37,395 bases of DNA from a virus. Its lineage: Duplodnaviria; Heunggongvirae; Uroviricota; Caudoviricetes. The notes beneath the pieces were generated by a model that saw only the letters and a list, made by a program, of their open reading frames with translations, did no database searches and had not been told where the DNA came from. The number at the start of each line of letters is the position of its first letter. Position 1 is the first letter of the stretch. The stretch lies in the IMG/VR virus record IMGVR_UViG_3300045988_031779, positions 1 through 37,395 of that record; one strand, given 5' to 3'. Of the stretch, positions 1,211-32,395 are shown piece after piece. The position numbers were made by a program, and so were the translations under genes.

Positions 1211-1232
1211 AAAGGCCGCAAGAGCGGCCTAT
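1211..1232. terminator. Candidate bidirectional intrinsic terminator (GGCCGC-aaga-GCGGCC)
   Basis: 6-bp GC stem between convergent genes 949..1206(+) and 1229..1957(-), T/A-rich flanks on both sides; overlaps the stop of the minus-strand gene. Confidence 0.45.
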
Positions 1233-3065: not shown

Positions 3066-3136
3066 CGGGCGGCGGCACAGGGATGTGTCTTTAAATCATT
3101 CTGTACAGATTGCAGACTGGGAGTGAATAGCGTACT

Positions 3137-3153
3137 ATTACCCTAAAGGTAAA
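3137..3153. promoter_or_regulatory. Operator-like palindrome site 4: ATTACC-ctaaa-GGTAAA
   Basis: 26-42 nt upstream of the ATG at 3179. Confidence 0.45.
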
Positions 3154-3178
3154 CCATGTGTTTACATGAGGAGGAGAT

Positions 3179-3388
3179 ATGGGATTTTGGTTCGCTCGTA
3201 CAAAAACGAGGGATAATGCACCCAGCCCTCAGGCAAAAAATGCAGAAGTTCCGGCGTCAGCGCAGGTTAACAAGCGTGGTGGAGTATATATCTCATCACA
3301 GCAAATTTCTGAGCTTCCTGAGGTTAAAGAGATGCGTCGTCTCGCTGCTGCAATTGTTAAACAGGATCTTGCCACTGTAAGGAAATAG
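3179..3388 (+). CDS. Hypothetical small protein, 69 aa
   Basis: ATG at 3179 with strong GAGGAGGA upstream; ordinary GC content; stop overlaps the GTG start of the next gene (TAGTG). Confidence 0.45.
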   Translation: MGFWFARTKTRDNAPSPQAKNAEVPASAQVNKRGGVYISSQQISELPEVKEMRRLAAAIVKQDLATVRK

Positions 3389-4251
3389 TGTTGTTAGCTC
3401 TTCTAATTATCCCCATTCTGGTTAGTGGTTATATTATGATAACCGCTAACCAGTATCATTATTTCCGTTTATACCGACATGAAGGCCAGCTTCTTTATAT
3501 GAAAGTAGCTGCATTAGGTACATATTGCCTTGTTGCTTCAGTAATAATTGCCGCATTTATAAAATGTAAATATCCTGATTTTCACCTAGTTCACGACATG
3601 GTGGAAACTTTTAATGTAACGTCAAAACCAGAAACAGATAGAATTTACATGTGGCTACTTCTTCTGTCAGTCACATCAATTTGCTTCTCTTTGTGTTATG
3701 TATCTTTTGTTTGGCTAAAAGATCTTCTTTTAGGTTGTTTTTATAAACGTGATATTTATGACAAAATATCAGAGGCAATGAAAGCTAGAGTATTGCGAAA
3801 AACGTACTCCCAGGGTTCTTTAGATTTGCTATTGCTTGATGCAATCGAATCAGATCCTAAGAAACCAATGTTAATTACTTTATCATCAAATAAAGTATAC
3901 GTTGGAATAATAAATGGTTCTGGTGAGCCAACGGAAAATCAAGGGCCACACCAACACATATCTTTTGTTCCTTTAATGTCAGGGTACAGAAACAAAGAAA
4001 ATTTATCTGTTACATTTACAAACGCTTACCCAGGTGAAATCCAAATTAAGCGCAGTGCTGCGATAAAAGGGATAAGCAAAAAGAAAGTTCAAGGTCTAGA
4101 AATTATGGTATCTATAGACGAAATAAGTCATATATCATGGTTTGACTTTGAAGTATATAAGGCAACCAATAACAAAGTAGAAACAAAGGGTCATGTTGTT
4201 AATGTGACCAAAAATGGTCGCAACATATACTACAGAAGTGGCAGGAAATAA
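3388..4251 (+). CDS. Polytopic membrane protein (about 3 predicted TM helices plus ~170-aa soluble C-terminal domain), 287 aa, AT-rich cargo
   Basis: GTG start overlapping the upstream stop, GGAA 5 nt upstream. Hydrophobic segments LLALLIIPILVSGYIMI, VAALGTYCLVASVIIAAFI, MWLLLLSVTSICFSLCYVSFVW. Sequence visibly AT-rich compared with flanking phage genes (by eye, not computed). No family recognised. Confidence 0.6.
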   Translation: MLLALLIIPILVSGYIMITANQYHYFRLYRHEGQLLYMKVAALGTYCLVASVIIAAFIKCKYPDFHLVHDMVETFNVTSKPETDRIYMWLLLLSVTSICFSLCYVSFVWLKDLLLGCFYKRDIYDKISEAMKARVLRKTYSQGSLDLLLLDAIESDPKKPMLITLSSNKVYVGIINGSGEPTENQGPHQHISFVPLMSGYRNKENLSVTFTNAYPGEIQIKRSAAIKGISKKKVQGLEIMVSIDEISHISWFDFEVYKATNNKVETKGHVVNVTKNGRNIYYRSGRK

Positions 4252-4855: not shown

Positions 4856-5740
4856 TTAAAAACAAGGCCGCGAAAGCGGCCTGTTTGATAACTGTGCAGT
4901 TTTCGCTGATCGATTTTCAGCTCTAAATTCAAGAACCGTTTCAATATTTCTTTCCTTCAGCATATCAATAACATTTTTATTCATTTGACTATCACTGGTT
5001 AATAACTGGTAAACGTCGCTTCTCTCTTTATCAGAGTTTTCTTTAACAGCTGCTTTGCATGCCAAATGCTTATTGAAATTTTCTACATCGCTAGTACAGG
5101 AATTTACGGCTGCTGATGAAATATCAGACGCTGAAGAAACACCATCATCCAAACGTTTTATAGCATTTTCTATACATGAGTTAAGGGAATAAACGACAAC
5201 TGAGCGATACCCTTCAGACGCACACCATTCTAAATTTCTTGAAGGATCGAGTGGTTTTACTTCGCTGGATTGAATTAACTTGTCAAAAACTGACTTATAT
5301 TCAATCTGTTTTTTATCTATAGCCCATACTTCAGTAGCTGATTTATAATTCCCCGTATGCCTATTAACATCAAATCCATGTTTTATAAGCAAATCTGCCC
5401 ATGAAAGATTTATTGATTCATTGTTATGAGGCCATTTTCCTGTCAGAACCGCCCCCATAGACCCCATATATCCGCCATATGATGGTATAGCACCATGGCT
5501 CAGTAACTTCTCAGCAACCACAGGGCAATTAATTACATAAGAGGCGTAAAGCCCATTCCATAAAGCCCCTCTATAGTAATCGCCACGATTAGGTTCTTTT
5601 AAGTCGATAGCCTTTGATAATTGTTCACACGTTTTGCATGCATCAAAGTTATCCTTATTGCATTGCAATGAACTGGCAGCTGTAGGATTTACAGAGACTA
5701 TTGAAAGCACTATGCCAAAAAACAAATTTATTTTTTTCAT
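4856..5740 (-). CDS. Secreted protein with Sec-type signal peptide, AT-rich; weak ankyrin-repeat-like motifs, 294 aa
   Basis: ATG at 5740, 1 nt after the stop of the 1129-aa virion protein gene. N-terminus MKKINLFFGIVLSIVSVNPTAASS is signal-peptide-like; ADLLIKHGFDVN and AEKLLSHGA resemble ankyrin repeat ends (weak). Confidence 0.55.
   Translation of the reverse strand: MKKINLFFGIVLSIVSVNPTAASSLQCNKDNFDACKTCEQLSKAIDLKEPNRGDYYRGALWNGLYASYVINCPVVAEKLLSHGAIPSYGGYMGSMGAVLTGKWPHNNESINLSWADLLIKHGFDVNRHTGNYKSATEVWAIDKKQIEYKSVFDKLIQSSEVKPLDPSRNLEWCASEGYRSVVVYSLNSCIENAIKRLDDGVSSASDISSAAVNSCTSDVENFNKHLACKAAVKENSDKERSDVYQLLTSDSQMNKNVIDMLKERNIETVLEFRAENRSAKTAQLSNRPLSRPCF
4866..4883. terminator. Bidirectional intrinsic terminator candidate (AGGCCGC-gaaa-GCGGCCT)
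   Basis: 7-bp GC stem with GAAA loop, flanked by AAAAACA upstream and GTTTGAT downstream, at the convergence of the plus-strand module and the minus-strand late operon; overlaps the last codons of 4856..5740. Confidence 0.5.
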
Positions 5741-9131: not shown

Positions 9132-11878
9132 TATTTGCCCCCTGCGTATATATTGCTCGGAAGGTAATTGGCTGAACCATAACCGAATGGTTTGGTCAGA
9201 TCTGGAGGAGTATATCCATCTTTATTGCTGAACTGCGGCAGCGGATTGCCTTCTCTCCGCACTCTAGCCTCATCAACACGCTGTTGCTGGAACTGAATGG
9301 TTTGCCTGTACATTGGAGATGTCAGCTGATCCGGCTTGAAACGAACAGGGAGACCATTTTCTCCAATATAATTTCTCGGTTCTATCGCTCCGTTTGCGTC
9401 AGGCTGTAAAACCATAACAGCATAACTCCTATCCCTTGCCGTAAGGCCATCAGAAACAAGTATTAAGTCCGTATCACTGCGAGGACCGCCAAAGGATTTT
9501 GATTTAAGCTCGCGTTTTTCCTGCTCCCACTGCCCCTGTATCCAGTTACCAGCACCATTATTTACTCCGTACAATGCCTCAGGTGCATACTTCATAACCT
9601 CTGCTTTGCCATTAACCGTAGAAACTCCCCAAGTGGTTCTGATCATGGCATTGGTCATTTTCTCAGCCTGTTCTGCATCGCCACCTGTCTGTACAAAGTT
9701 AGCATCGTAAATTGTCTGGTAATCTCGCTGATAGGCCGCATTTGATTTTCCTGGATCGGTAATATCCGGAGACCACGAACCAAAGGAAGTCAGACTGCTG
9801 GCGTTATTTTGTGCAGCAGTTGCCCTCGCCGCGACATATTTTTTGTCTCGCATGGCAGTGGAAAGCATCTGTTTCATTCGGTCATCCTGTTGGAACACCT
9901 GGCTGTAAGCCATATCAACAGCCTTATCCTCCGGCACGCCAGCGCGGGAATAATCGTAAACCTTGCCGTAAAATGCCATCGTACTTTTATCAAGTGTTGC
10001 CGCTGCCGCCGGATTATTATCGAATAACTGACCGTAGAATTTTGCCATCGGGACAACCAGCGCAGGATCTCTTGATGTTGCTCCACTGTTAAGCATTGTT
10101 TTAACCTGAGTTGGTATCATGCCGCTTTTAGTTGTGACGGTGACCAGTGTATTGATGCTCTGCGGATCAGATATGGAAAACGAAGGCGCGATATCCTGCG
10201 CGAAATAACGGTCTACCGCTGCCTGATTGTTTTTGTCGTTCGGGTCCAGCGGGAAGTTATTTTGCATTGAAGACACGAACCTGTTTCTTCCCTGCTGAAT
10301 CTCCCACTCCCTATCCATCTCTTTAAATTTGGCCTGCATTTTCTCCCAGCGTTGCTGGTTAGCTGCAAATCCAGGAGCGTTTGGATCCTGTGGACGTAAA
10401 CGTTCAAGAATGTCTTGTCGTCCTTCTGGAGTGAGGTCTTTAGCGGCACCAATGACACCTCCATATTGTATCTGCGCCTGCATATCCTTCCACTTCATAG
10501 CGCCAATGCGCGGACCATTGGCCCGGATAAAATCGTCCTCAGAAGGTAACTGCTCAGGTTTCAATCCTTCATCAAGGGCTGAATATGCATCTTTAACTAC
10601 GGTGCTAAGCTGGTCCGCATACTGCTGGCGGTACTGATTTCTCAGCTCATTAGCCTGCCTCAATGCCTGTATTTGCATTTGAGGGCTCATAGCATCAAAT
10701 GCCGCATTGCCCGTATAACGCTTAGGTGAATCAAGGTTAGTTAGACCAAGGGCTGCCGAGATACCAGTTTCAAGCTGTTCGGTGCTATAAGGCATACTGC
10801 CATTTTCGTGTTTAATAATCCCAGCACATAAAGCAGCTAGTGTCTTTGGGTTAGAGATATCAAGCTGATCATTCTCCCCAACACCAAGCTCACCACACAA
10901 TGCCCTAATATAAGCATCAGTATTATTACCATCACTAGCCGGAGCATAACGATTAACAATCTCGCTAACGGTGTCATAGCCTTGACGCTGGTAAGACAAC
11001 ATATTTTTACCCAACGCGCGGATTCCATGCTCAGGGGTAGCAAACGTTGCAAAACGTCCATCGCTACCGATCTGACCTTCCCACGGGTTAGATTTGCTCG
11101 CTTCAATATTACCAGGATTATTATTACGTAAACCACGAGCATCCAATGAATTACCATGTGACATTGCACGGCTCACACCGTCAAGATCCCCTGGCTCTCC
11201 ATTAACCTGAAGAAACTCGTTGTATTTTTGAGCGATATTTCCTATCCATGCTTGCTGCCCCATTTGTTCCTTGAGCTGAGTTTTCTGCTGAACACGCCAC
11301 TCATCAGGAAGCCCATGCGCATCAGCGTATTGATCAATAGATTCAAATCGCTGCTTGGCTAAATCGACAAATGCTTGGTTATCGCTATATAGCCCCGCAG
11401 ACTGAGTGACAGCCAATGCATTTCCTGACAAATACGTTTGATCTTGGAATTGCTGAAACTGCCCAACTTCATATCGACGTGCCTGATTGTAATAAGACTG
11501 CATAGACTGCTGGAGTTGAAAGGATAATTTATTCCTTTCCTCACTTTCAGGAATTGAGCCTAATAATGCCTGAGCCCTTTCCTGCATATTTTTCATAACA
11601 GCGTCACTCTGACCAAGAGCGTTTTTACCCTGTTTAGAAATCAGCCCATTTTCTGGGTTGTTAATCTGGTCATCTGCAAATTGGTTAAATTGCAGTAACG
11701 CCTCCTGGGCCATAGCAACATTCGCTTTCTGCCTGGCTTCACCATATGCCACCGCATACTGATCTGCGACATTCGCCAGCACCTGACCTGCTTGAGGAAC
11801 ATCGAAGGTTTGAAAACCACCGGTTTGCACACCACGACTTTGCACCTGGCGTCCGGATGTAGTAGGAACAACAGGCAT
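9131..11878 (-). CDS. Internal virion/core protein (T7 gp15-like position), 915 aa
   Basis: 1-nt overlap with flanking genes. Contains a conserved-looking segment LRNNNPGNIEASKSNPWEGQ...GIRALGKNMLSYQRQGYDTVSEIVNRYAP of unknown function. Assignment by order and size. Confidence 0.55.
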   Translation of the reverse strand: MPVVPTTSGRQVQSRGVQTGGFQTFDVPQAGQVLANVADQYAVAYGEARQKANVAMAQEALLQFNQFADDQINNPENGLISKQGKNALGQSDAVMKNMQERAQALLGSIPESEERNKLSFQLQQSMQSYYNQARRYEVGQFQQFQDQTYLSGNALAVTQSAGLYSDNQAFVDLAKQRFESIDQYADAHGLPDEWRVQQKTQLKEQMGQQAWIGNIAQKYNEFLQVNGEPGDLDGVSRAMSHGNSLDARGLRNNNPGNIEASKSNPWEGQIGSDGRFATFATPEHGIRALGKNMLSYQRQGYDTVSEIVNRYAPASDGNNTDAYIRALCGELGVGENDQLDISNPKTLAALCAGIIKHENGSMPYSTEQLETGISAALGLTNLDSPKRYTGNAAFDAMSPQMQIQALRQANELRNQYRQQYADQLSTVVKDAYSALDEGLKPEQLPSEDDFIRANGPRIGAMKWKDMQAQIQYGGVIGAAKDLTPEGRQDILERLRPQDPNAPGFAANQQRWEKMQAKFKEMDREWEIQQGRNRFVSSMQNNFPLDPNDKNNQAAVDRYFAQDIAPSFSISDPQSINTLVTVTTKSGMIPTQVKTMLNSGATSRDPALVVPMAKFYGQLFDNNPAAAATLDKSTMAFYGKVYDYSRAGVPEDKAVDMAYSQVFQQDDRMKQMLSTAMRDKKYVAARATAAQNNASSLTSFGSWSPDITDPGKSNAAYQRDYQTIYDANFVQTGGDAEQAEKMTNAMIRTTWGVSTVNGKAEVMKYAPEALYGVNNGAGNWIQGQWEQEKRELKSKSFGGPRSDTDLILVSDGLTARDRSYAVMVLQPDANGAIEPRNYIGENGLPVRFKPDQLTSPMYRQTIQFQQQRVDEARVRREGNPLPQFSNKDGYTPPDLTKPFGYGSANYLPSNIYAGGK

Positions 11879-20845: not shown

Positions 20846-20883
20846 TTGACATTTAACGCACAAATTATTACCTTTCAGGTAAC
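20846..20883 (+). promoter_or_regulatory. Rightward promoter candidate (TTGACA) overlapped by operator-like site 5 (ATTACC-tttca-GGTAAC, 20867..20883)
   Basis: Consensus -35 hexamer at 20846..20851; the palindrome sits where the -10 and transcript start would be; faces the tRNA and moron ORF. Confidence 0.4.
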
Positions 20884-21204: not shown

Positions 21205-21281
21205 GTGGCATTAGCTCAGCTGGACAGAGCAACCGCTTTCTAAGCGGTTGGTCGCAGGTTCGAATCCTGCATGCCACGCCA
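21205..21281 (+). tRNA. tRNA-Arg (anticodon UCU)
   Basis: 77-nt cloverleaf folded by hand: 7-bp acceptor stem GTGGCAT/ATGCCAC, D arm GCTC/GAGC, anticodon stem ACCGC/GCGGT with loop TTTCTAA (anticodon TCT), T arm GCAGG-TTCGAAT-CCTGC, discriminator G, encoded CCA. Resembles enterobacterial argU-type tRNAs. Confidence 0.85.
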
Positions 21282-21324: not shown

Positions 21325-21368
21325 GGCGGTGATGGTTTCCCTTGAAGGACTATCACCGCCCTTTTTAC
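21325..21368 (+). terminator. Intrinsic terminator after the tRNA (GGCGGTGAT ... ATCACCGCC followed by CTTTTT)
   Basis: 9-bp stem with a long loop followed by a T-run on the plus strand; a second GC hairpin plus T-run lies at 21445..21469 just before the ORF at 21479. Confidence 0.45.
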
Positions 21369-21478
21369 AGCATGACGCCATTGCGATGGCTTCATGCTGT
21401 AAACCAGTACAGCCACGGAAGGCATAACTCATTGCTTCCAGTTCGCCCGATTCGCCGGGCATTTTTTTTAGGTGAGAT

Positions 21479-21902
21479 CATGAAAACAGCCGACATGCTA
21501 GCTAAATATCTAAATGAATGGCCGTGCAAATATGTACGCATTGTTCAGGGTGATGACTCAATTTTTTATGGTGTTTTTGCAGGAAATGAAATGCTTTGTG
21601 AAGCAATTCCAGGTGAGCGACTTGCCGGGTTAACGCTTAGCGATGACCATGGAATAGGAGTTACTTGCCATGACTGGATTTCAGCGCAGAAAACTGAAAT
21701 GGAAAAAGGCAATGTGTTTGATATTTCTCGCGCTGTATACGCCAAAGAAAAAAGTGATGATGATTACATGCGCGAAAACTTATACAACATGAAGTTACAA
21801 TGCCTGGCTGAAGTGCTTAGTAAAAGATCTTTACTTGATGTGGTTGGTGCTGAGCAGGACGCCAAGGCAATCAACGCCGCATTCGATAAAATAACCTTCT
21901 AA
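21479..21902 (+). CDS. Hypothetical moron protein, 141 aa
   Basis: ATG at 21479 with GGTGAG 4 nt upstream (track ORF 21342..21902 is the same frame extended). Encoded on the strand opposite the flanking terminase and portal genes, downstream of the tRNA. No family recognised. Confidence 0.5.
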
Positions 21903-21905
21903 CGC

Positions 21906-21920
21906 CGTGACATGTCACAA
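21906..21920. repeat. 15-bp element CGTGACATGTCACAA (copy 1; contains the 12-bp palindrome GTGACATGTCAC)
   Basis: Exact second copy at 24171..24185; each copy is followed by a terminator-like hairpin. Confidence 0.6.
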
Positions 21921-21922
21921 AC

Positions 21923-21949
21923 AGCCAGCCTATGAGCTGGCTTTGTTTT
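21923..21949 (+). terminator. Intrinsic terminator (AGCCAGC-ctatga-GCTGGCT followed by TTGTTTT)
   Basis: 7-bp stem plus T-rich tail directly after the stop of 21479..21902 and the palindrome. Confidence 0.5.
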
Positions 21950-21992: not shown

Positions 21993-23468
21993 TTAAGCAT
22001 AGGGATCGTAATCTGTGATGGCCTTGCCTTGCTGGTTCTGCTGACCGGGAATTCGCAGACGCTTAGACACAGGGAACGCAAACGTCAGCAGTAGCGCATC
22101 GCCTTTACCCGGTGAACGCCCAAGCCGCTCCTTGATATCTTCCTTCGGTTCGATAACGATTTTACCGTCCACTCGAACTTTGTACTCTGCCGCCGACAGG
22201 TCGTCTGCTGTTTCCTGGTCATCCAGCATGCCGCCCAGCCTCAGCCATGTCTTGCATGAATTGAACATCTCCCCACGCTTGTTGAGCATCTGCGGGTCAG
22301 TAGACGCGCCACCGAACGGAACAAGTTGCCATGTACGACCCCAGCCGTCACCGATTGACTTCAAACCGGTTCCGTAACCGAAGTCGATGAACACCGCGTC
22401 AGCCTGATACTGGTCTTCAAAGTCAGCGATACGCTTCGCCATAATCAGATCGTCGGTAGTCTTGTTGCCAGTCCACAGCACCTTACTGTGTAGCCCCTGC
22501 CGCAGGTATATCACAGCGTCATCAACGCCGGAGTATGCCGGGTCAACGCCGATTATCACCGGAGCATGTGCAACCTGCGCAGCGGTTACCACCCGTTTCA
22601 TTGCCTCGTCAGTAAGACCGGTAGGGATAAACTGCAATTCAGATGCATCAGGGAATATGCCACGCACACGGATTTTAACGAAGTCGCTGTCTTCCCCGTA
22701 GTCATCAACCCATTTCTGCAACTGCTGTTTGTTAGTGCCTTCCACCGTCCGGCTGTCAATCTGCGCAGTTTTCCAGCGGTGTTTATATTTGCGGAAACAT
22801 TCGCGAAAACGCCCGGTGTTACGTGTAGGGTTTCCGAACGCCACCCAAATAATCTCAGTGTCTTCGTCCGTAAGCGCACCCTCGGCAACTTCCCACACCA
22901 GATCCGCAATGTTCGACGCTTCATCAAACACCACGATGATGCGTTTGCGCTCGTTGTGTAGTCCGGCGAATGCCTCGGTGTTGTGCTCAGACCAGGGTAT
23001 TGCGTCAGCCCGCCACCGCTTGTCGTGCCCTAGGTCATTGCTGTACATCGCGGTAGCGGTACAGGTAAACCAGTCTTTCGTGATAGCAAGGTTCGACCAC
23101 TTGATAATTTCCGGCCAGGTCTTCGTTCGTAGCTGGTTGTCGGTGTTGGCGGTCACCACGACCTTACAATCCTCGCAAGTGGACATGCCCCAGTTGATCA
23201 GCATTGAGATGAATGCGGATTTACCAATACCGTGACCAGAAGCGCGTGCCAGCATAAGCGGCTGATAGCGCGTCTCTGGATTCTGCAGGTGATCACGTAT
23301 CTCTCGGAACGCATCAGCCTGCCACTGACGTGGGCCGGTGGCATGTGCCAGTTCAGTCCCCTCTTCCCCCCATGGGAACGCATAGAGGGCATAGCCAAGC
23401 GGATCGTGAGTGAACCCTGCAATATCCTCGATTAACTGCTCTTCAGGAGATAACGCTGTATCTGTCAC
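21993..23468 (-). CDS. Terminase large subunit, 491 aa
   Basis: Size, ATPase-like N-terminal region and acidic nuclease-like C-terminal region, 4-nt overlap with the small subunit gene upstream. Confidence 0.8.
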   Translation of the reverse strand: MTDTALSPEEQLIEDIAGFTHDPLGYALYAFPWGEEGTELAHATGPRQWQADAFREIRDHLQNPETRYQPLMLARASGHGIGKSAFISMLINWGMSTCEDCKVVVTANTDNQLRTKTWPEIIKWSNLAITKDWFTCTATAMYSNDLGHDKRWRADAIPWSEHNTEAFAGLHNERKRIIVVFDEASNIADLVWEVAEGALTDEDTEIIWVAFGNPTRNTGRFRECFRKYKHRWKTAQIDSRTVEGTNKQQLQKWVDDYGEDSDFVKIRVRGIFPDASELQFIPTGLTDEAMKRVVTAAQVAHAPVIIGVDPAYSGVDDAVIYLRQGLHSKVLWTGNKTTDDLIMAKRIADFEDQYQADAVFIDFGYGTGLKSIGDGWGRTWQLVPFGGASTDPQMLNKRGEMFNSCKTWLRLGGMLDDQETADDLSAAEYKVRVDGKIVIEPKEDIKERLGRSPGKGDALLLTFAFPVSKRLRIPGQQNQQGKAITDYDPYA

Positions 23469-24061
23469 TGATTGCCATCCTGACGTTCTTTCAGTCTCTT
23501 CCTGGCTGCCGCTATGCGATCAGCAATTGTCACATTCACATTAACATCCAGGCGTTCTTTGAATGCGTTGACGTCGACGTGCTTACCAATCAGTTCGAGG
23601 TTCTTCACCTTGTCAGGCCATTTAATTTTTTTGAGGATTGTCTCTATCGAATCCTCGTTCATGTTCATGATGGTCGATGACAGATCAAAGCCACTAAGCG
23701 TAGTGCGCCAGATTTTCGGCCACTCGCGGATTGGCTTAAGGCTCCCATCGTCGTTGAGGATGTCGATCACGTCCATCTGGTCGATCTCCACCAGGCGCAT
23801 GAGAACGTAATCAGCACTGACGCGCATTCGTTTGTTGCGCTCTTCCATCAGCTCGGCAATCCGTTTTTGAATGCGTTCATCGCGCATCATGAGACTGGCT
23901 TTAACTGCCGCTGTATTTGGGGAGAATCCTGCGTTAATCGCTGCCTGAGTCTGGTTTTCAGGCGTTTTGATGTATGACTGGCAATAAGCCTCCTGCATTG
24001 CTGTTAGTGGCTTAAATTGCGTTGATTTGCGTTTATAGGTTTTAGGTTCAGCAGGCATCAT
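23465..24061 (-). CDS. Terminase small subunit, about 198 aa
   Basis: Start preferred at the ATGATG at 24061; the track start at 24139 adds an N-terminal extension (TITTTVTITTVV) that is the translation of a direct DNA repeat and reads through a terminator. Motif PLTAMQEAYCQSYIKTPENQTQAAINAGFS resembles small-terminase N-terminal DNA-binding domains. Confidence 0.6.
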   Translation of the reverse strand: MMPAEPKTYKRKSTQFKPLTAMQEAYCQSYIKTPENQTQAAINAGFSPNTAAVKASLMMRDERIQKRIAELMEERNKRMRVSADYVLMRLVEIDQMDVIDILNDDGSLKPIREWPKIWRTTLSGFDLSSTIMNMNEDSIETILKKIKWPDKVKNLELIGKHVDVNAFKERLDVNVNVTIADRIAAARKRLKERQDGNQ

Positions 24062-24077
24062 AACCACCGTGGTAATA

Positions 24078-24094
24078 GTTACCGTTGTGGTAAT
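24078..24094. promoter_or_regulatory. Operator-like palindrome site 6: GTTACC-gttgt-GGTAAT, embedded in direct repeats GTGGTAATAGT
   Basis: 17-33 nt upstream of the small terminase start; direct repeats GTGGTAATAGT at 24069..24079 and 24087..24097. Confidence 0.4.
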
Positions 24095-24112
24095 AGTACC
24101 ATGCAAAATAAA

Positions 24113-24130
24113 GCCGCCATAGTTGGCGGC
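24113..24130 (-). terminator. Intrinsic terminator on the minus strand (GCCGCC-aactat-GGCGGC followed by TTTATTTTG)
   Basis: 6-bp GC stem with T-rich tail in the minus-strand sense, between the last early gene (24180..24518) and the terminase genes. Confidence 0.45.
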
Positions 24131-24170: not shown

Positions 24171-24185
24171 CGTGACATGTCACAA
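24171..24185. repeat. 15-bp element CGTGACATGTCACAA (copy 2)
   Basis: Identical to 21906..21920; overlaps the stop of 24180..24518. Confidence 0.6.
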
Positions 24186-24518
24186 TATTAATTTCGTTTC
24201 ATGCCAGCCTTTAGTCACCCAGCATTGCGAGTCACCATTACACGGGCATGAATTCACAGGAACTCTCTCGCCGCACTTACCGCAACGTTTTCTGCTGATC
24301 GATTTTATACGCCCGTGCACGCGCGCATCATCCTGGCGGATCAGTAACGCTATATACTCACCAAATTCGTAAGGCGCACGCCCGGGGCGACGTGTGGCAC
24401 AGTTACGCTCCAGCATTTCAATTTCCTGAGCATCAAGCACAATCTCCAGCTTACGCACACCAGATGCAGCTTGTCTGGCTCCCTGAGCGGCTTTGCGCTC
24501 TGCTGCTGATTTAGCCAT
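24180..24518 (-). CDS. Zinc-ribbon protein, candidate late-gene regulator, 112 aa
   Basis: Basic N-terminal half and C-terminal Cys cluster RKRCGKCGERVPVNSCPCNGDSQC; last gene before the terminator and terminase block. Function inferred from position only. Confidence 0.5.
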   Translation of the reverse strand: MAKSAAERKAAQGARQAASGVRKLEIVLDAQEIEMLERNCATRRPGRAPYEFGEYIALLIRQDDARVHGRIKSISRKRCGKCGERVPVNSCPCNGDSQCWVTKGWHETKLIL

Positions 24519-29186: not shown

Positions 29187-29203
29187 TTTACCCCTTAGGT
29201 AAT
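29187..29203. promoter_or_regulatory. Operator-like palindrome site 7: TTTACC-cctta-GGTAAT
   Basis: 4-20 nt upstream of the start codon at 29184. Confidence 0.45.
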
Positions 29204-29248
29204 TAAAAACCACATAAGACACGAAATCAATAGATTTTAGAATATTTT

Positions 29249-29265
29249 ATTACCCCTAAGGTAAT
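29249..29265. promoter_or_regulatory. Operator-like palindrome site 8: ATTACC-cctaa-GGTAAT
   Basis: Perfect palindrome about 45 bp from site 7, in the gap between the P-like gene and the DUF1064-like gene. Confidence 0.5.
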
Positions 29266-31219: not shown

Positions 31220-31236
31220 ATTACCTTTGAGGTACG
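31220..31236. promoter_or_regulatory. Operator-like palindrome site 9: ATTACC-tttga-GGTACG
   Basis: One mismatched half-site; in the gap between the cro-like gene end and the zinc-ribbon gene. Confidence 0.35.
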
Positions 31237-31556: not shown

Positions 31557-31621
31557 TTCACCCATAAGGTAACAAAAATCAAGGATAGTTACCTATGAGG
31601 TGCATTTACCTGTTGGGTAAT
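31557..31621. promoter_or_regulatory. Cluster of three operator-like sites in the repressor/cro divergent region
   Basis: TTCACC-cataa-GGTAAC (31557..31573), GTTACC-tatga-GGTGCA (31588..31604, weakest), TTTACC-tgttg-GGTAAT (31605..31621). Confidence 0.55.
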
Positions 31622-32316: not shown

Positions 32317-32333
32317 ATTACCTAATGGGTAAT
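32317..32333. promoter_or_regulatory. Operator-like palindrome site 13: ATTACC-taatg-GGTAAT
   Basis: Perfect palindrome between the repressor terminator and the rightward early promoter. Confidence 0.5.
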
Positions 32334-32351
32334 TTTTTTAACTCATATCTA

Positions 32352-32395
32352 TTGACATCAAACCAAATACGCATAATTATTACCTCAACGGTAAC
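32352..32395 (+). promoter_or_regulatory. Rightward early promoter candidate (TTGACA, 17 bp, AATTAT) overlapped by operator-like site 14 (ATTACC-tcaac-GGTAAC, 32379..32395)
   Basis: Consensus -35 at 32352..32357, -10-like AATTAT at 32375..32380, palindrome overlapping the -10 and start region. Confidence 0.5.

Follow-up and report, generated by a model that had tools for sequence, protein, structure and literature searches.

A small phage protein family with a predicted ribbon-helix-helix and zinc-ribbon fold, and the 14-bp symmetric element at its stop codon

Ribbon-helix-helix (RHH) regulators such as Arc, Mnt, CopG/RepA, AmrZ and ParD/TacA share a strand-helix-helix core. As obligate dimers they insert a two-stranded sheet into the major groove of a palindromic or pseudo-palindromic operator, typically 12-14 bp long. 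Among the phage proteins tied to late-gene control are the lambda-type Q proteins (Q-lambda, Q21, Q82), which are products of the last early gene and have a DNA site near the end of that gene, and the Ogr/Delta proteins of P2 and P4, which are small and bind zinc. Ogr displays the cysteine spacing C-x2-C-x22-C-x4-C, contains no RHH domain, and is associated with TGT-N12-ACA sites at about -55. YbiI and TraR belong to the RNA-polymerase-binding C4 zinc fingers of the DksA/TraR type. To our knowledge, it is not known how late genes are controlled in epsilon15/phiV10-like phages and in many siphoviruses that lack Q. Phages of the Uetakevirus type and other Q-less phages include engineered reporter phages as well as serotype-converting prophages of E. 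coli O157 and Salmonella. A further point of reference is MatP, an RHH protein with a preceding basic helix; the consensus of matS is GTGAC-RNY-GTCAC, and true matS sites are reported to be avoided by prophages (PMC3603311).

The family gene and its protein

The window, by which is meant the whole stretch of 37,395 nucleotides that was analysed, is a Uetakevirus prophage resembling epsilon15 and phiV10. The early operon on its minus strand, which includes Cro-like, O-like, P-like, DUF1064, Ea22/Eae-type accessory, DUF551 and DUF2591 genes, is closed by a gene with an ATG start at positions 24180-24518 (minus strand). The translated ORF is a 112-aa protein, MAKSAAERKAAQGARQAASGVRKLEIVLDAQEIEMLERNCATRRPGRAPYEFGEYIALLIRQDDARVHGRIKSISRKRCGKCGERVPVNSCPCNGDSQCWVTKGWHETKLIL, homologous to epsilon15 gp49 and phiV10 gp55 and assigned to PHROG 536. 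An earlier note, made from the letters of the sequence, had described this ORF as the last gene of a leftward early operon, ending inside a palindrome and directly preceding a terminator and the terminase genes, and all of this is seen: the TGA stop lies within the perfect palindrome GTGACATGTCAC (24172-24183), and on the minus strand there follow, in order, the intrinsic terminator T1 (24103-24130), the sequence TGGTACTAT (24093-24101), two TTACC-N5-GGTAA operators (24061-24093), the small terminase subunit gene terS (23465-24058) and the large terminase subunit gene terL (21993-23468). The early/late-boundary position that the note proposed recurs in several unrelated phage lineages. As the first gene past the boundary, terS is identified by its match to Pfam Terminase_2 (8e-30) and by the annotation of TL-2011b, and the terL ORF is annotated as such in relatives.

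The frame at 24180-24518 is not a chance one, because it matches the PHROG 536 profile with an E-value of 4.4e-53 (residues 1-111 on positions 2-114 of 115), has 601 homologues in a set of 5.8 billion proteins, and matches 154 phage records. The first 8 nt of the gene are shared with the preceding ORF (ATGGCTAA, 24511-24518), whose stop lies inside the overlap. Exactly this overlap is present in loci L001, L002, L003, L004, L087 and L091, and it is the same whether the gene upstream is DUF2591, ASCH, gp48, phiKO2 Gp44, P2 gpA or HNH. Since the overlap is constant whatever gene lies upstream, the gene behaves as a cassette with fixed junctions at both ends.

The family is small, comprising only 180 clusters at E <= 1e-3 in a profile search of 1.84 billion representative proteins; a single scan of genome contigs yielded only two loci. 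PHROG 536, which is labelled 'transcriptional regulator' without experimental basis, contains epsilon15 gp49, phiV10 gp55, phiKO2 gp45, ZF40 gp22 and the N15 gp46 group, and the window protein shares 98% identity with phiV10 gp55 and about 77% with epsilon15 gp49. Where the sources could be identified, they are phages and prophages of Enterobacterales, Vibrio, Aeromonas and Alteromonadales. Literature searches returned no study of the protein family and no mention of the palindrome.

In the structural model, the protein adopts an RHH fold with a strand-helix-helix core joined to a zinc ribbon. The predicted architecture consists of a basic N-terminal helix, the RHH domain at about residues 20-66, a linker helix and the C-terminal ribbon, in which C79, C82 and C99 are the likely zinc ligands together with C91 or C93 as the fourth. 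The earlier note had called it a zinc-ribbon protein, which the predicted fold upholds for the C-terminal module while placing it in fusion with an RHH domain that the note had not anticipated. The basic N-terminal half that it described is present (K3, R8, K9, R15, R22, K23), and its C-x2-C-x8-C-x-C cluster is found as C79, C82, C91 and C93, the complete pattern of the window protein being C-x2-C-x8-C-x-C-x5-C with C99 as the last member. In a 65-sequence alignment reaching down to about 27% identity, M1, C79, C82 and C99 never change, and R8, R13, E54, L59, P87 and G95 hardly vary. DNA binding is predicted, and the protein is probably a small, dimeric, sequence-specific DNA-binding protein.

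Searches with the 112-aa protein gave little else: no Pfam or NCBIfam model reached threshold, phmmer against the PDB produced no matches, and Foldseek against the PDB and BFVD produced no meaningful full-length match. One marginal lead concerns the zinc module, which may resemble the DksA/TraR C4 zinc finger (PF01258). PDB profile searches matched residues 46-106 to TraR and YbiI at E-values of 0.014-0.05, and in hhalign the family scored P 2e-4 with the TraR sequence and 4e-5 with an alignment of TraR (probability 70%); neither TraR nor DksA came up in the structure searches.

A symmetric element at the stop codon

The palindrome in which the gene ends is part of a 14-bp symmetric element, T-GTGAC-AT-GTCAC-G (site A, 24171-24184), with the TGA stop residing in the left arm. 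The 12-mer GTGACATGTCAC is present exactly twice in the 37-kb window, about 0.002 further exact copies being expected by calculation (37,395 / 4^12). The second copy, site B (21907-21918), has the terL terminator on one side and the end of a plus-strand moron on the other. Two plus-strand features lie in this region, antisense between terL and the structural genes: a tRNA-Arg(TCT) at 21205-21281 and a 186-aa moron ORF at 21342-21902 that has no Pfam match. Site B and a bidirectional terminator delimit this region.

Gene and palindrome are linked throughout much of the family. With the gene located by HMM in each fetched locus and the palindrome start accepted from -15 to +40 of the stop, GTGAC-NN-GTCAC was found at the stop codon for 88 of the 101 distinct family proteins, mostly in the identical register, in which the TGA stop occupies the left arm and the last sense codon ends in G. 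An exact palindrome with 10 specified bases is expected by chance about once per megabase (calculated as 1/4^10 per position). The pairing persists to about 30% protein identity and across podo-, sipho- and myovirus backgrounds. It is seen in epsilon15, Klebsiella Kp4865-1, Pectobacterium ZF40 and Pantoea AH07 (GTGACCTGTCAC), in phiKO2 (gp45, 37% identity; GTGACTGGTCAC) and a P2-like Yersinia myovirus (41% identity; GTGACGCGTCAC), and also in marine and Aeromonas/Paraglaciecola lineages at about 30-35% identity.

The arms of the palindrome are invariant, and the two central bases vary freely (AT, AG, GC, AC, CA, CC and CG). Of 232 half-sites, 228 have a pyrimidine just outside the arm. Symmetric flanks and fixed arms together define a 14-bp two-fold site, Y-GTGAC-NN-GTCAC-R, the pattern expected of a symmetric dimer bound to duplex DNA. 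When 11 diverse loci were compared all against all, the only gene common to all was the 112-aa family gene; the binder, if phage-encoded, should therefore be the family protein. The near-invariant R8 and R13 of the N-terminal helix parallel the invariant arms. Judged from these sequence patterns, Y-GTGAC-NN-GTCAC-R is most likely the cognate site of the 112-aa protein and site A its probable operator.

Two other roles were considered for the palindrome itself. An RNA hairpin is unlikely, as a loop of 2 nt cannot form, no covariation is seen between the arms and the C...A flanks cannot pair. A cos or pac function was rejected, given that the position of the palindrome relative to the terminase genes varies among lineages.

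The linkage is not absolute. One subclade, with the C-terminus ...KLSA, retains the gene and the downstream terminator and has no palindrome. The loci concerned are L126, L098, L112, L093, L104, L122 and L148, in which the terminator lies about 25 nt after the stop; the same seven carry a LexA-box promoter for a umuD-like gene, and LexA boxes also occur in Kp4865-1 and the Yersinia phage. A scan of IMG/VR with the 14-mer TGTGACATGTCACG is uninformative on the exclusivity of the pairing because of chance matches and unrelated GTCACG iterons. The latter form GTCACG/CGTGAC arrays (L193, about 10700-10900; L241, about 1880-1960; L212, about 740-800; L222, about 3120-3190) inside replication-initiator-like ORFs of high-GC phage contigs that are unrelated to the 112-aa family, and are probably origin iterons.

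Additional copies of the site occupy recurrent positions. Equivalents of site B reside 2.2-2.9 kb downstream of site A in epsilon15, Kp4865-1 and many IMG/VR relatives; TL-2011b, which carries a different moron there, has no site B. A third position, in relatives, lies between variable tailspike modules and a conserved terminator. Within the window, the terminator AGGCCGC-TTTC-GCGGCCTT occurs at 4864-4882 and 1212-1230 (both minus strand), at the ends of late/conversion units, and the first of these is preceded by GTGACATGTCAC in relatives but not in the window. Vibrio phage K233 has three 12-bp copies, one upstream of its late promoter, one 31 nt before terS and one 31 nt before another gene, the copy nearest to the family gene being 226 nt downstream of it. 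This phage also contains one 13-bp sequence fitting the matS consensus, GTGACACCGTCAC (L166, 19491-19503), which overlaps the stop codon of a small gene. The P2-like Yersinia phage has a single copy, at the stop of the gene and the end of the early operon.

These positions bear on a reading in which the palindrome is not bound by the 112-aa protein at all and is instead a junction element that travels with the gene cassette, an account that we regard as quite improbable. Conceivably, such an element could be a recombination hot spot, a sequence recognised by some other factor of phage or host, or a piece of a terminator; these variants share the same low standing. All three Uetakevirus site positions border hypervariable cassettes (inserted ORFs, morons and tailspike variants), the 5' end of the gene cassette is fixed as well by the 8-nt overlap, and invariance of the arms down to 30% protein identity is unusual for a co-evolving operator. 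In L171, moreover, 22 nt separate the two arms, which make a stem like that of a terminator. However, the diverse loci have no other protein family in common, the N-terminal arginines are as invariant as the site, and the 14-bp consensus, symmetric about an unconstrained centre, has the form usual for a protein operator, while the 2-nt loop excludes a simple RNA hairpin. The L171 locus (43-2302) derives from a distant prophage in which the family gene is downstream of two Tad2-like genes and a Sequestin gene (anti-defence).

Terminators, promoters and late control

Both sites in the window are next to terminators. T1, whose stem (24113-24130; GCCGCCA-ACTA-TGGCGGC, then TTTATTTT) is 41 nt downstream of site A, is conserved in TL-2011b, epsilon15 and IMG/VR relatives. 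Site B abuts the bidirectional hairpin after terL (GCCAGC-TCATAG-GCTGGC, 21919-21941), an arrangement that also appears in epsilon15 and L016. Among distinct palindrome contexts from gene-carrying loci, 72 of 131 (55%) have a terminator-like structure within 60 nt, compared with 106 of 1310 random positions (8%), a contrast that is descriptive rather than a clean test because the contexts are dominated by related Uetakeviruses. The palindrome precedes the terminator in 70 of the 72 terminator-associated contexts, with a spacing that is usually 1-60 nt, at boundaries between transcription units. In several phages the palindrome is positioned directly ahead of the ribosome-binding site of the next gene. 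The boundary regions contain no Rfam family.

An association of this kind could reflect a roadblock or insulator, in which protein bound to these palindromes would block RNA polymerase or help to terminate it. Such an activity, which we consider unlikely though less so than the junction element, would make boundaries sharper where units converge and where the early operon ends, and read-through would be shut off after early expression; this elaboration is unlikely to the same extent. The sites do fall at gene ends and convergent junctions (site B in the window and the tailspike-terminator sites in relatives), the sole site of the P2-like phage marks the end of its early operon, and where the palindrome lies just before the ribosome-binding site of the next gene in an operon, bound protein would be polar. 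An RHH protein that lacks a known activation domain is, in addition, typically a repressor. Yet a roadblock would be redundant, since most sites have an efficient intrinsic terminator 1-60 nt downstream, and in K233, where a site is 31 nt upstream of terS, blocking would oppose lytic growth unless it were later relieved.

A different arrangement is found in K233 and five other loci (L172, L168, L173, L174 and L164), where the family gene is again the last early gene. It is followed by the palindrome, phage-specific operator-like repeats, a sigma-70 promoter, a leader, terminators, holin/lysis genes and the terminase, and this order corresponds to the lambda Q-PR'-tR' layout. The promoters are near-consensus (10 of 12) and are located 57-103 nt from the palindrome, a leader motif, CGTGGTGTTG, starts 10 nt after the -10 hexamer, and one to three strong terminators precede the holin/lysis genes. 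No Q-like gene was detected among the neighbours in these phages. The late control cassettes extend over L166 33336-33495, L172 3450-3646, L168 3467-3575, L173 about 3930-4050, L174 about 3905-4005 and L164 3494-3608, and none matched an Rfam family. Their leader motif, CGTGGTG(T/A)TTG, often pairs with a downstream GCCAC, and the repeats at -35 differ from phage to phage (ACAC-N5-GTGT, TGACCAC, ACCACAAAA and ATGCAAAA). In L164 a hairpin insertion separates the gene from the late cassette, and the palindrome is present on both sides of the insertion.

The presence of the palindrome upstream of the late promoter in K233-like phages is what would be expected of a conventional late-promoter activator like Ogr/Delta or Mor/C, for which the palindrome would be an upstream activating site. 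A sigma-70-like sequence, GTGACA-N18-CATGAT, also overlaps site A, and epsilon15 has GTGACA-N17-TAAATT. However, the K233-like promoters, at 10 of 12 consensus positions and 57-103 nt away, need neither an activator nor a fixed geometry, and many sites leave no room for a promoter before the next gene. The match overlapping site A is weak and is not conserved in Kp4865-1 or ZF40, and its transcript would stop at T1 after about 45 nt. With similarity to Ogr/Delta likewise not found among the Pfam matches listed, a conventional activator seems highly doubtful. As a general function, a promoter overlapping the palindrome, with GTGACA as the -35 element, was rejected, the -10 element not being conserved beyond close relatives.

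The terminase genes of the window probably have a repressor-controlled promoter of their own, as judged from the sequence between T1 and the start of terS. The element TGGTACTAT is a candidate extended -10 for terS, and its form, TGnTA(C/T)TAT, is kept in relatives and epsilon15 between T1 and the operators; a -35/-10 scan did not detect it. The two operators belong to a set of 14 TTACC-N5-GGTAA copies in the window, where 0.64 would be expected (858-872, 1978-1992, 2071-2085, 3138-3152, 20868-20882, 24061-24093, 29188-29264, 31221-31235, 31558-31620 and 32318-32394). Copies flank the repressor gene, follow cro and fall midway through the early operon; others precede terS and the structural operon (at 20868) or belong to the lysis/conversion end, and most transcription units have a copy in front of them. 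In the epsilon15 record their equivalents are annotated as sites of repressor binding, and the genome-wide set resembles the 'stoperators' of mycobacteriophages. Because terS has a conserved candidate extended -10 element of its own, overlapped by repressor-type operators, late expression need not depend on the 112-aa gene, and the case that the protein must switch the terminase on is correspondingly weaker.

Other lineages set a further bound on its role. In phiKO2, gp38 is a true Q (PF06323, 2e-82; 245 aa) alongside the family homologue, which is 1.9 kb from the annotated late promoter, and in ZF40 a Q-like protein (PHROG 753, 1e-62; 201 aa) is encoded two genes beyond the family gene. The family gene follows gpA in the early operon of the P2-like myovirus, and it precedes xis/int in AH07 and L083. 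Since it coexists with Q, and occurs in a P2-like myovirus and beside xis/int, the protein is not a general stand-in for Q or Ogr. The earlier note had put it forward as a candidate late-gene activator or antiterminator. Its predicted DNA binding, its position at the boundary, the terminators that follow the palindrome and the Q-like layout in K233-like phages are in keeping with that candidacy, and the coexistence with Q in phiKO2 and ZF40 and the candidate -10 element of terS count against it.

Proposed role and comparison with known systems

It is plausible that the 112-aa protein controls transcription across the early/late boundary. Our leading suggestion, advanced tentatively and with somewhat less than even confidence, is that it regulates termination at the borders of transcription units while tethered to a DNA site. 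As the final product of the early operon, released next to site A, the protein would bind Y-GTGAC-NN-GTCAC-R sites as a dimer and act on RNA polymerase crossing them, which the TraR/DksA-like zinc module could contact. The most likely effect would be less termination at the adjacent terminator, such that early transcription extends into terS/terL and beyond, and the result would be a site-tethered, Q-like switch assembled from unrelated parts. Reduced termination is favoured as the direction because a site just before an efficient terminator is an antiterminator-loading arrangement and is redundant for a roadblock, because the K233-like cassettes need an antiterminator for which the 112-aa protein is the sole candidate nearby, and because the zinc module faintly resembles an RNA-polymerase-binding finger.

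A bolder version, which we hold to be rather unlikely although not as much so as the roadblock, is that the family constitutes a new, independently evolved class of elongation regulator, in which an RHH dimer on a matS-like 14-bp element uses a TraR-like module to switch termination off. That an independently evolved Q-like switch of this sort is common to podo-, sipho- and myoviruses of Enterobacterales, Vibrio and Aeromonas is doubtful in equal measure. If termination were indeed modulated from a DNA tether, the family would join N, Q, RfaH and put RNA as a further mechanistic class. The conserved cassette of gene and site beside terminators supplies a concrete, testable hypothesis for late control in Q-less phages, and, whatever its function, the 14-bp element is useful in annotation as a marker of the borders of transcription units and mosaic segments in these phages.

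Similar arms occur in matS, which are identical to those of the palindrome, and since prophages reportedly avoid true matS (PMC3603311), the near-identity of the 14-bp element to it deserves attention. A MatP/matS-like role, whether in organising DNA (positioning or compaction of phage DNA) or directed at the host (the Ter macrodomain, MukBEF or cell division), would accord with this likeness and with the basic helix that precedes the RHH domain in both proteins. Yet matS is 13 bp long with a 3-bp spacer, and every gene-linked site has a spacer of 2 bp. The likeness between the proteins is confined to the RHH fold: hhalign against MatP was not significant (E 0.21), and the model of the 112-aa protein has neither the four-helix bundle nor the coiled coil of MatP. 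Such a role would also leave the association with terminators and gene ends unexplained, and it appears very unlikely.

The zinc module may also be compared with TraR/DksA. Over about 60 residues, the two align on a helix and the pattern C-x2-C-G-x-x-(L/I)-P ... G-x-x-x-C that comes after it, with marginal statistics. In the TraR/DksA finger, however, the cysteines are spaced C-x2-C-x17-C-x2-C and there is an acidic tip, whereas in the 112-aa protein the fourth cysteine is displaced, the tip is absent, and the aligned helix is helix B of the predicted RHH domain.

From the two families of late regulators to which the earlier note had seen no evident homology, the protein stands apart. Among the Pfam matches listed for the 65 family members (the best 25 of 42 families), there is none to Ogr/Delta (PF04606) or to the Q families (PF03589, PF06530 and PF06323), and the predicted RHH and zinc-ribbon fold is unlike either, which speaks against placing it with them. 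On this sequence evidence the protein belongs to neither family. It shares with Ogr/Delta its small size, its predicted zinc binding and a tie to late-gene control, but differs in the C-x2-C-x8-C-x-C-x5-C spacing and in having an RHH domain. With lambda-type Q it shares the last-early-gene position and a DNA site near the end of the gene. It has no sequence or fold similarity to Q, it is shorter (112 aa, against 201 aa in ZF40 and 245 aa in phiKO2), and its site is 57-103 nt upstream of the -35 element, or far from any promoter, whereas the element bound by Q lies in or beside a constitutive promoter with a promoter-proximal pause and a terminator after it.

The closest correspondence is with the RHH regulators. 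The predicted strand-helix-helix core is that of Arc, Mnt, CopG/RepA, AmrZ and ParD/TacA, an N-terminal arm precedes the strand as it does in AmrZ, and the symmetric 14-bp element is of the size and form typical for the class, although no Pfam RHH model reached threshold for the 112-aa protein or the 65 family members (best 25 of 42 families). Unlike these regulators, the protein adds a C-terminal cysteine zinc ribbon and a conserved basic N-terminal helix, and its putative operator overlaps the stop codon of its own gene rather than the promoter. What appears to be new is thus the unusual fusion of a predicted RHH regulator to a zinc ribbon and the probable placement of its operator at its own stop codon. 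Overall, the 112-aa protein is most like an RHH operator-binding regulator and, in its position, like Q.
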